Made by a program: the position numbers and the translations under genes
Notes under the pieces: model-generated
What the model was told of the DNA's origin: nothing
The model's input: the letters and a program-made list of their open reading frames with translations, nothing else
The model's database searches: none
UHGV virus genome: UHGV-1764535
Origin: a virus
Strand: one strand, 5' to 3'
DNA length: 15,194 nucleotides
Shown: piece by piece, positions 12,072 to 15,194 of the stretch
Position numbering within the stretch: the first letter of the stretch is position 1
Layout of the letters: the number at the start of each line of letters is the position of its first letter

Positions 12072-14807
12072 ATGGCTAATTACCGTGATTTGTTAGAGCA
12101 GGCTGGCGCACGTTACGGTGTGCCAGAAGGGTTGATGACTGCACTGGGTGCCAAGGAGTCTTCTTACAACCCTGCCGCAGTAAGCTCCGCCGGGGCTGTA
12201 GGATTGACTCAGGTCATGCCTGGGACATGGCGTGATATGGGTTATACCGATGAGCAAATGCAAAACCCCGAATATCAGGCTGACGCTGGCGCGCGCTATC
12301 TGGCAAAGATGTACCAGCAGTTTGGTAACTGGCGTGACGCTCTTCAGGCTTATCACGACGGTCCCGGCAACGTTATGAAGGCAAAGCGTGGTGAATATAC
12401 GCCAGGACCTGAAGGCCGCGGTTACGTTGATGATCGCTTTGCTCAATGGGCGGGTGACCCGGTGACAGACTCAACAGTCGAACAGCGCGCCACCTCTGCA
12501 AAGGTACACCCTCAGCAAGACCCTAACAACCCGTTTGCACAACTGGAAGTACAGTCATCCGAACAAGTATCGGCATCAGGTGTGCAGTCAGACCCAAATA
12601 ATCCATTTGCTCAGATTGAGCAGCAGGCAGCCAGTCAGCAGCCACCTCAACCCGTAAGTTCTGTCGCACCGAAACCTGTTCAGCAACAAACAGTTAATCA
12701 GGCCAATAATGAACCAGCACGTGAAGAACCATCATTGATGCAACAAGCTGGCGATTGGCTCACAGGTGGTCAAAGTGCAGGGCAAATTGCAGAGCAGGCT
12801 GGTCGTGGTCTGGTAAACATACCATTTGACGTATTGCAGGGTGGCGCAAGTCTGATTAATGCAATCAGTCAGGGGCTTGGGGGGCCAAAAGTATTGGATG
12901 ATGTTTATCGTCCAGTAGACAGACCGACAGACCCCTACGCGCAAGCTGGAGAGTCAATAGGCGGTTATCTTGTTCCTGGAGCAGGTGTAGCTGGAAACAT
13001 GGTCATTGGTTCTCTCGCTGACGCGGCGAATCAACGGGGTGATTTTGCCGAAAATGCCGCTATTAATGCCGGACTTAACATTGCTACGCATGGCCTGATA
13101 AATGGCGTTACCCGTGGTGTTCGTGGTGCATCAAATATAATTAGTGGCAATAAAACATCTGCACAGAGAGCGACCACTGCGCCAACAGAAACATCACCAT
13201 TCTCCGGTGATGCCGCTGCAGCAACAAATCCTGCGGTTCATGCCGCAGAGGCAAGAGTAGCACAAGGTGTACCAATGACTCCTGCGACGAGGAACCCAGA
13301 GGAAGTCGTTCGCACAGTAGCAGCACAAAAAAGGCCAAATCTCGCTTCATCGCTTGATGAACTAGATATCAATCCTCAGGCTGAAGTTCTGGAGTCTGCT
13401 GAAAGGCTTAATGTTGATTCATTACTCCCTTCACACTTTTCCGGGAACGAGCAATACAAGGCAGTTGAGCAAGCAATCAAGTCCCGTGCGGGTTCTGCTC
13501 TACAGGTGCAGGAAAATGAAGCAATCAGGCAGCTAGCACAGGGCGCGGGGGAGATAATTGATCGCGTTTCCGGTGCAAAAGATGCTCTTGGTATGAGCGA
13601 CAAGTTTATTGATACGGTCAATGGAAGAATGTCTGCGCTGATGAAACGAAGCGACCAGCTTTATCGCAATGTTGAAAAGGCGATGCCTGCAGGTGCAAAA
13701 ATTGATGCGCCATCAACAAGGTCAATGCTCAAACAGGTGGCAGAAGATCTTGGTGGGATGAAAAACCTTGACCCTATTGAAAAGAGAGTCTTTCGGGCAG
13801 TTAATCCAGGCAAGAACGGCGCATTAACTTATGCAAATCTCAATAAGCAACGACGACTTGTTGGTGATGCACTTCATAAGAATTCTGGACCATATAAAGA
13901 TGCTGATCGCGCTGCTTTATCGAGGCTTTACGGTTCGCTCGCCGATGATCAAAAGGCGGCGCTGTCAGAGACAAATGCATTACGTGATTTTGAAGTTGCT
14001 CAGAGGCTTGTTCAGATGCGAAAAAGCATGGAAGAGCAAATGATTAATCTAACTGGCAGAACGCTGAACGGTGATGTTTCTCGCAAAGCAACTACAGCAC
14101 TACAGGCAATGTCGAAAGGCGATGCCAAAGGATTTCGTGAATTGATGCAAAACACGCCGTCCAGGAAGCTAAGAACCGAGCTACTGGGAACAGGTCTTCG
14201 GGATATGCTTTCGAACGGAAAACGTGGCGCTGATTTTAATCCTGCAGGGTTTGCTGACTGGTATCAAAACATGTTAGCAAACGGGCAGATGCGCAATCTT
14301 GCCCGACATTTACCAAAAGAGACTATGTCAGGTCTGAACGATGTATATAAGGTCGCAAAGGCTATCAAAGACGCAAAATCTTACGAGATAACTACAGGAA
14401 GACTAAACGAGTTCGTCAAACGGTTTAATCGCGTCACTGCGGCAAATGAATTTGTTGCTAACCATGCCCAACGCATTGGCACTGCGGTTGGTTCAACTGT
14501 GTCAGGACCGTTCAGTGCAGTAGGTGCTGTTGCTGGGTCAGAAATTGGGGCAAAAGTCGCCAGCAAAATCAGGGCGATGGGCGGCGCTGCATCAATGGAA
14601 TCTGCAGAAAAGCTAATTAGCTCACCAGAATTCCAGAAAGCAGCAAGGCTGGCAGTAAAACAAGCACCAGAAAGCATCGTTGATACAACTGTAAGACGCT
14701 CTTCTGCTTGGCGCTCGTTTTACAACTCACTTCCAGAATCAGATAAGAAAACCATATCAAGGCTAGGCATCATGTACTGGATGAACAGTGATGATAACCA
14801 GAAGTAA
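12072..14807 (+). CDS. Ejection (E) protein 3 at the P22 gp16 position, 911 aa, with N-terminal SLT-family lytic transglycosylase domain
   Basis: ATG 12072 immediately follows the previous stop. Residues ~15-110 carry the SLT signature ([29 protein letters not shown] ... [30 protein letters not shown]; catalytic Glu in KES, AYxxG-like motif). Followed by a Q/P-rich linker with DPNNPFAQ(L/I)E repeats and a long C-terminal region. Confidence 0.8.
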
Positions 14808-14824
14808 CGGAAAGCCACGGATGG

Positions 14825-15088
14825 TTAGTTGCAGTCTTTTTTATATAAATCTCTGAGCGTATCAAAGACAATTTTCTTTACCATATCGGATTGTTGGTCT
14901 GCAATACGCTCTGCATCGTCAATGTAAACGGATGCAGAGCTTTGTTTAGCCAATGATTCTTCAATCGCTGCAATTATCTCTGAGTTCAGCGACCTGTTAT
15001 TCATCTTCGCTCGCTGTTTAATTTTCGCGTGGAGTTCATGCGGAAGTCTCAAGTGAAACTGCGCCTCGTCGTATTTGCTGTACATCAT
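14825..15088 (-). CDS. mnt: Mnt-like ribbon-helix-helix (Arc/MetJ family) repressor, ~87 aa
   Basis: Minus-strand ORF whose product (..YDEAQFHLRLPHELHAKIKQRAKMNNRSLNSEIIAAIEESLAK...YIDDAERIADQQSDMVKKIVFDTLRDLYKKDCN) matches P22 Mnt as I recall it (HFNFRMP..V..KLK.RA..NGRSMNSE...DAERLADEQSELVKKMVFDTLKDLYKK). Start taken at ATG 15086-15088 with GGTGAGG SD-like motif 6 nt upstream, which gives a Mnt-like length; the track's longer ORF starts at a TTG (15145). Confidence 0.8.
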   Translation of the reverse strand: MMYSKYDEAQFHLRLPHELHAKIKQRAKMNNRSLNSEIIAAIEESLAKQSSASVYIDDAERIADQQSDMVKKIVFDTLRDLYKKDCN

Positions 15089-15194
15089 CAATGCCTCACC
15101 AAATGGGTGGAATGGCATCGTAAAACCTACTGTACAAATCAACAATCGTGCCGTTTCTAGACTGGCCCCCTGAATCTCCAGACAACCAATATCA
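15089..15194. promoter_or_regulatory. Putative mnt promoter/operator region (possibly a divergent immI-type control region), truncated by the window end
   Basis: Non-coding sequence upstream of the mnt-like gene. Contains the imperfect palindrome CACCAAATGGGTGG (15097-15110) plus TGTACA and TCTAGA palindromes. No convincing sigma70 -35/-10 pair could be assigned by eye. Confidence 0.3.

Follow-up and report, generated by a model that had tools for sequence, protein, structure and literature searches.

Organization of the locus

The window, that is, the whole stretch of 15,194 nucleotides analysed here, closes with a small gene of the Mnt type that converges with the ejection-protein gene at the gene 16 position of the late operon. 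The late operon is 96.6% identical to that of Shigella phage Sf101 (Lederbergvirus). Upstream of the mnt-like gene lie a putative promoter, part of a putative operator and the terminal nucleotides of an IS2 element. The features of this region are collected in Table 1.

Table 1. Coordinates of the features at the end of the window
Feature	Position	Strand	Remarks
Gene-16-position ejection protein, 911 aa	12072-14807	+	Equivalent to Sf101 gp13
Spacer between the convergent stop codons, 17 nt	14808-14824		Stop of the 911-aa gene at 14807
mnt-like CDS	14825-15088	-	264 nt; 87 codons and TAA
Shine-Dalgarno sequence GGTGAGG	15094-15100	-	Read from the sequence; conserved in the 14-sequence alignment
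Putative Pmnt -10, TACGAT	15117-15122	-	Aligns with the annotated P22 Pmnt -10, TATCAT
Putative Pmnt -35, TTGTTG	15140-15145	-	Aligns with the P22 Pmnt -35, TTGAGA; 17-nt spacer to the -10
Putative Mnt operator remnant, 11 of 17 nt	15147-15157		Half-site CGTGCC and central GTTTC
IS2 left inverted repeat (IRL), terminal 37 nt	15158-15194	+	37/37 identity to IS2 ends

The first-pass annotation of this region had described a Mnt homologue on the strand opposite the late operon (termed close, which corresponds to about 50% identity), 17 nt between the convergent stop codons, nothing intervening where in P22 sieA and other accessory genes separate mnt from gene 16, and no clear terminator; all of these descriptions hold, and the P22 genes in question are sieA and orf59a. 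Its treatment of 14825-15194 as a single phage locus is correct as far as 15157, but the last 37 nt are IS2, which also makes up one-third of the fragment 15089-15194.

The gene 16 side

The 911-aa protein encoded at the gene 16 position is a mosaic. It contains an N-terminal SLT lytic transglycosylase domain (Pfam, 3.3e-25) and a 137-aa segment that is 81% identical to residues 53-189 of P22 gp16, and its C-terminal two-thirds are otherwise divergent. Homology to APC_JM3.2 (MG197996) runs through gene 16 and ends at window position 14855, about 30 nt into the 3' end of mnt, while homology to IME10 begins at 14817. Both borders suggest that boundaries of mosaic recombination lie at the 3' end of mnt.

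A simple scan detected no terminator between gene 16 and mnt on either strand, and the folding energies of the region were no better than those of shuffled sequence. The interval between gene 16 and the tailspike gene has been described as the "ant moron", a set of genes that varies between phages and is expressed independently (Villafane et al. 2008, PMC2629481), and is hypervariable, with ten types among sixteen genomes (PMC2629481). The ant moron sits inside the late operon, so that late transcription arrives at the tailspike gene only after passing through it (PMC2629481). Consequently, the missing terminator is expected rather than odd. The mnt-like gene occupies the position that defines an ant moron, with the gene 16 side seen in the window and the tailspike side in its relatives.

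The mnt-like gene and its product

The window gene encodes an intact Mnt-type RHH repressor with both Mnt domains, and the match is far beyond chance. In the 87-aa protein, the Arc RHH domain of Pfam (PF03869) covers residues 8-50 (8.8e-15), and the Mnt C-terminal domain (Repressor_Mnt, PF11423) covers residues 58-83 over the full length of the profile (8.5e-15). Comparison with known structures gives PDB 1mnt over residues 7-80 (8.6e-20) and 1qey, the Mnt tetramerisation domain (3.1e-9). The protein is 51% identical to P22 Mnt over 78 aa (BLASTP, E=2e-31), and its beta-strand motif reads QFHLR.

The Shine-Dalgarno sequence lies 5 nt ahead of the first ATG of mnt and 8 nt ahead of a second, in-frame ATG at 15085, from which an alternative 86-aa product would be made. 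A 106-aa open reading frame with a TTG start also covers the gene; it is merely the mechanical maximum, and the 87-aa CDS was taken instead. An RNA hairpin over the ribosome-binding site (ATGCC...GGCAT, 15089-15118) was likewise rejected. Visual inspection suggested that it is conserved and has compensatory changes in L-type phages, but its folding z-scores are non-significant (-0.18 for the window, -1.71 for phage L and +0.10 for P22) and its left arm overlaps the -10 hexamer.

The naming of these proteins in public records requires comment. Across several RefSeq phage records, Mnt homologues, including P22 mnt (NC_002371), are called "partition protein ATPase". The Sf101 homologue, gp14, is labelled "putative chromosome segregation ATPase" in GenBank and "partition protein ATPase" in RefSeq (NC_027398). 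Since these proteins of 82-87 aa are RHH repressors, the "ATPase" names are propagated misannotations.

Putative promoter and operator

The region upstream of mnt was aligned across 14 phages and prophages, one of which was P22, whose sites are annotated. The pattern TAnnAT of the -10 hexamer is invariant in 14 of 14 sequences, and so is ATTG at the -35. In the window the two hexamers match the consensus at 7 of 12 positions, which is below the threshold of a simple scan.

Beyond the -35 hexamer, at a distance of 1 nt, the alignment contains a 17-bp dyad, CATACC-GAAAC-GGCACG, that corresponds column for column to the annotated P22 Omnt. It is intact (CGTGCCGTTTCGGTATG) in the Logan contig SRR33896441_135 (L015), which encodes an identical 87-aa protein. 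In the window, IS2 stands at the centre of the dyad and the other half-site is displaced. The survey of relatives covered 80 IMG/VR loci with a Mnt of ≥90% identity; of these, 78 were informative for the dyad, and 76 have it. In the complete Sf101 genome the core pattern TACCN5GGTA has a single occurrence, at the dyad upstream of mnt, and in the two intergenic subtypes of the QFH clade the shared homology begins at the outer edge of the dyad. A search of the window for a second operator returned just chance-level matches, with 2-3 mismatches, inside coding regions.

The half-site retained in the window reads CGTGCC, as opposed to CGTACC in almost all relatives. The rare G, at 15150, occurs in none of the 80 IMG/VR loci and is shared only with SRR33896441_135, the contig with the identical protein; it therefore probably predates the IS2 insertion.

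The sequence of the dyad varies by clade, in step with the beta-strand motif of Mnt, which according to Knight and Sauer in 1989 reportedly determines specificity in both Arc and Mnt. P22 and epsilon34 combine HFNFR with AGGTCCACCGTGGACCT; L, ST160 and Gally combine QFNLR with AAGACCACGGTGGTCTT; and the window clade, together with JEP4 and VSe13, combines QFHLR with CATACCGAAACGGTACG. This is good comparative evidence that the 17-bp dyad is probably the Mnt operator.

At least 120 matches to the dyad were obtained in viral stretches. Among those listed, 55 adjoin mnt, one is at the edge of a contig, next to a tailspike gene, and 64 are unrelated and probably chance matches. The 15-mer ATACCGAAAYGGTAC was found twice, exactly 515 nt apart, in each of several unrelated viral contigs (L101, L106, L130, L141, L169, L178); Mnt, tailspike, Arc and Ant are absent from the vicinity of these repeats, which represent some other repeated element.

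The promoter that faces away from mnt is less well preserved. The hexamers of P22 Pant are not conserved, and by our own reading of the alignment the -10 equivalent in the window is the degenerate CAAATC. A scan that recovers both Pant and Pmnt of P22 found no rightward, tailspike-directed promoter in SRR33896441_135. The sole site that it reported there is a chance-level 9-of-12 match on the mnt strand, upstream of the dyad.

Selection on the orphan mnt gene

The mnt gene is under purifying selection, with dN/dS of about 0.11 among 54 distinct alleles. Its 55 polymorphic sites are distributed as 10, 11 and 34 over codon positions 1, 2 and 3, and 80 of 81 alleles lack an internal stop codon. 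These values bear on one of the two options given for the mnt of phage L, namely that an orphan mnt is left over from an immI region that has been lost and is itself decaying (bioRxiv 10.1101/2020.10.05.325894), with no present function. Such a remnant would be compatible with the absence of arc and ant, with the degenerate -10 of the Pant equivalent, and with the fact that IS2 could enter the dyad without loss of the prophage DNA. However, decay is disfavoured by the low dN/dS in combination with the conserved promoter and dyad, which are kept across clades whose flanks cannot be aligned, and by the way in which the dyad and the recognition residues change together. Consequently, the remnant is considered an unlikely explanation.

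Another explanation places the target of the repressor in trans. In P22, the Mnt of the prophage silences ant both in the prophage itself and in a superinfecting phage, as part of the biology of the immI region. By this precedent, Mnt made by a prophage of the window type would repress ant in any superinfecting P22-like phage whose operator specificity matches, and would thereby guard the prophage against induction by antirepressor. Purifying selection without a target in cis would fit such a role. On the other hand, it presupposes incoming phages with a QFH-type operator at arc/ant, and among the at least 120 dyad matches listed none lies beside an arc or ant gene recognizable with P22-type Arc and Ant, the only probes used. 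Immunity in trans is thus improbable as the function of this gene.

Arrangement in related phages and prophages

In Sf101, gp13 (911 aa) is followed by mnt on the opposite strand and then by the tailspike gene, with arc and ant absent. The order of mnt and a divergent tailspike gene recurs in E. coli FACU2024 and in SRR33896441_135, where the uninterrupted upstream region of mnt leads into a tailspike head-binding fragment, and neither of these has arc/ant-like genes. Among the 80 IMG/VR loci, a divergent tailspike gene comes next after mnt in 78, the other two being cut off upstream of mnt, and P22 Arc, Ant and SieA have no match in any of the 80. The mnt-only form is also present in phages L, ST160, Gally and Brookers. 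In the literature, ST64T and ST104 have been described as carrying mnt only plus one small ORF (PMC2629481), and a mnt-only ant moron has been described for phage L too (bioRxiv 10.1101/2020.10.05.325894). The arrangement is thus already known, from Sf101, from many E. coli prophages and from published work.

The first-pass annotation had proposed instead that the window ends at the edge of a rearranged immI-like region, with arc/ant-like genes and operators just beyond 15194. It is true that mnt is divergent from arc-ant in P22, epsilon34 and Kapi1, and that the window sequence ends at 15194. Nevertheless, this proposal is very unlikely to be correct: native homology stops at 15157, the stretch from 15158 to 15194 is IS2 and not phage control DNA, the relatives named above have the tailspike gene at that place, and P22-type arc/ant neighbours are missing from all of the at least 120 dyad-containing viral stretches listed. 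Of what had been expected downstream, the relatives lack the arc/ant-like genes but do have an operator-like dyad, which is split in the window.

The stop codons of gene 16 and mnt are 17 nt apart in 10 IMG/VR loci, all of which carry the 911-aa allele, and 88-95 nt apart in 69 loci with a 665-aa allele (79 of 80 loci within 17-95 nt). The tailspike gene starts 121-135 nt upstream of mnt in 66 loci and 654-728 nt upstream in 10. In two of the long-gap loci (L017, 2827-3369; L087, 2830-3369), an ORF of about 180 aa lies on the mnt strand, exactly at the tailspike start. Judged by eye, it has HNH-type endonuclease motifs; it is present as two different alleles and has left a vestigial MSDIT start. 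In Kapi1, an annotated HNH endonuclease adjoins the tailspike gene.

Two further departures from the common order were observed. In SRR33896441_135 (L015, 3375-5880), the tailspike head-binding fragment beside mnt is 70 aa long and is followed by a second, complete tailspike gene with Head_binding and SASA domains and an upstream region of its own; the doubling looks like the scar of a tailspike replacement. JEP4 (L007, 2773-5237) and VSe13 (L011, 2011-2301) encode a Mnt with the QFHLR N-terminus and a different C-terminal half; on the gene 16 side they have Rha, KilA or short "antirepressor" genes that converge with mnt, which makes for another layout of the ant moron.

The IS2 junction

When the end of the window was searched by megablast, matches to phages and prophages broke off at 15139-15157, and the last 37 nt matched IS2 at 100%, one of these matches being annotated as IS2. 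In complete E. coli genomes, the native matches extend precisely to 15157, and the 37-mer by itself occurs at thousands of places. The 37 nt are identical (37/37) to the end of the 1331-bp IS2 of E. coli LR882057 (L004, 5853-7183) and match that of E. coli FACU2024 (L003, 5542-6872) at 36/37. In FACU2024 the transposase starts downstream of this end, which identifies the end at 15158 as the left repeat, IRL. From there IS2 is oriented to the right, pointing away from mnt, and the window breaks off within the element.

On the + strand, the dyad of SRR33896441_135 reads CGTGCC-GTTTC-GGTATG, whereas the window has CGTGCCGTTTC followed directly by the IRL of IS2. From the centre of the dyad to the ATG of mnt the window is identical to SRR33896441_135, and the mnt gene, its ribosome-binding site and the promoter hexamers are therefore intact. 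The IS2 of FACU2024 is flanked by a directly visible 5-bp target duplication (AATAG), so that the central GTTTC of the dyad is the expected duplicated target in the window. A simple insertion predicts that the far side would consist of ...GGGGCAAATCCA, then GTTTC-GGTATG, a leader of about 60 nt and the tailspike ATG.

The IS2-operator junction or its mirror was searched for with one degenerate pattern, verified on the window, which had no match in genome, viral or metagenome contigs; the insertion into the centre of the dyad is private to the window genome. That the 37-nt tail is an assembly artefact, the chimeric end of a contig whose operator is really intact, is hardly credible: contigs commonly break at IS copies and the junction is absent from these three collections, but the break falls exactly at the terminal base of IS2 and exactly at the end of native homology, as a true junction would, and related prophages in complete genomes have real IS2 insertions within a few hundred bp.

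Such insertions have occurred independently near mnt in several related prophages. IS2 lies in the first codons of the tailspike gene in FACU2024 and in the head-binding domain of the tailspike in LR882057 and two other loci (L057, L081); in SRR33896441 (L015, 6296-6322) it lies 14 nt before the gene 16 stop. This clustering may reflect a hot spot for IS2, or prophage-inactivating hits that are tolerated.

Proposed role of the orphan Mnt

The preferred reading, to which a probability of roughly three in four is assigned, is that the locus is the mnt of an Sf101-like Lederbergvirus prophage with a minimal ant moron, in which Mnt acts from the dyad and in which this operator has been split by IS2. 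The scheme that may be inferred for DNA binding at the dyad, for the regulated target and for the consequences of the insertion is as follows. By homology with P22 Mnt, the protein would assemble into a tetramer via its C-terminal coiled coil and occupy a single 17-bp dyad. This dyad is placed, in relatives, in a 121-nt gap between mnt and the tailspike gene, 1 nt upstream of the Pmnt -35. Mnt bound there could control its own promoter, Pmnt (autoregulation), and could, in the lysogen, block or dampen transcription that runs rightwards into the tailspike gene. An antirepressor would play no part in this circuit. Repression of tailspike transcription is the weakest step of the scheme, because the Pant-equivalent promoter is not conserved. 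A possible role of Mnt and Arc in tailspike dosage has been mentioned (PMC2629481). With IS2 in the centre of the dyad, each side would keep one half-site, and the Mnt-operator circuit would probably be disabled. The tailspike gene, if it is still present, would have at least the IS2 end between it and the late operon.

A broader generalization is tentative and rather doubtful. According to it, orphan Mnts form co-varying protein-operator classes (HFNFR with GGTCCAC, QFNLR with AGACCAC and QFHLR with ATACCG) that are maintained by purifying selection for a job independent of ant, and the IS2-split operator of the window would be a natural knock-out. The argument for the ant-independent job is that purifying selection acts in phages without an antirepressor. 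If it is true, such a job could be, for example, control over whether late or read-through transcripts enter the tailspike gene, or action in trans against incoming phages.

For phage biology in general the locus changes little, since it is a known kind of gene in a known arrangement. Its value lies in correcting the expectation of arc and ant, in showing the IS2 junction and in flagging the widespread mislabelling of Mnt. In addition, it provides an operator assignment and a pattern of specificity classes for orphan Mnts, whose function is left open by the literature. The residual novelty is the function of the orphan Mnt and its specificity classes.

Comparison with known systems

The inserted element is IS2, a member of the IS3 family. 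Its terminal repeat is identical, and related prophages carry 1331-bp copies with 5-bp target duplications nearby. The site at the centre of the mnt dyad, in contrast, was found nowhere else in the three public collections.

The closest described counterpart of the mnt-like gene is gp14 of Sf101 (KJ832078 / NC_027398), which occupies the same locus, is about 92% identical as protein and about 97% as DNA, and is likewise separated by 17 nt from the 911-aa gp13. In Sf101, however, the dyad is intact, and the tailspike gene begins 89 nt away as measured from its annotated start. The Sf101 paper does not mention mnt.

Phages ST64T, ST104 and L resemble this group: their mnt and tailspike genes diverge from either side of a dyad, and the antirepressor is absent. 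They differ by a small gene, orf62, between gene 16 and mnt and by a bidirectional terminator after mnt; in the window nothing intervenes and no terminator was detected. They also belong to another specificity class, with QFNLR and AAGACCAC.

Compared with the immI region of P22, the window locus is without arc, ant, sar, sieA and orf59a, arc and ant being judged from relatives. The window has QFHLR where P22 has HFNFR and a dyad of the ATACCG type instead of the GGTCCAC type, its Pant-like promoter is degenerate, and its dyad is split by IS2. The head-on layout of mnt and the late operon, to which the first-pass annotation had drawn attention, is indeed present but does not set the window apart. 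In P22, sieA, orf59a and mnt all run opposite to the late operon and are followed by Pmnt/Pant, Oarc, Omnt, arc, sar, ant and gene 9, so that the convergent layout is ancestral rather than distinctive. With P22 Mnt itself, the window protein and its gene share the RHH domain, the C-terminal tetramerisation coiled coil, the strand opposite the late operon and, for the dyad as it stands in relatives, the same register of promoter and putative operator.
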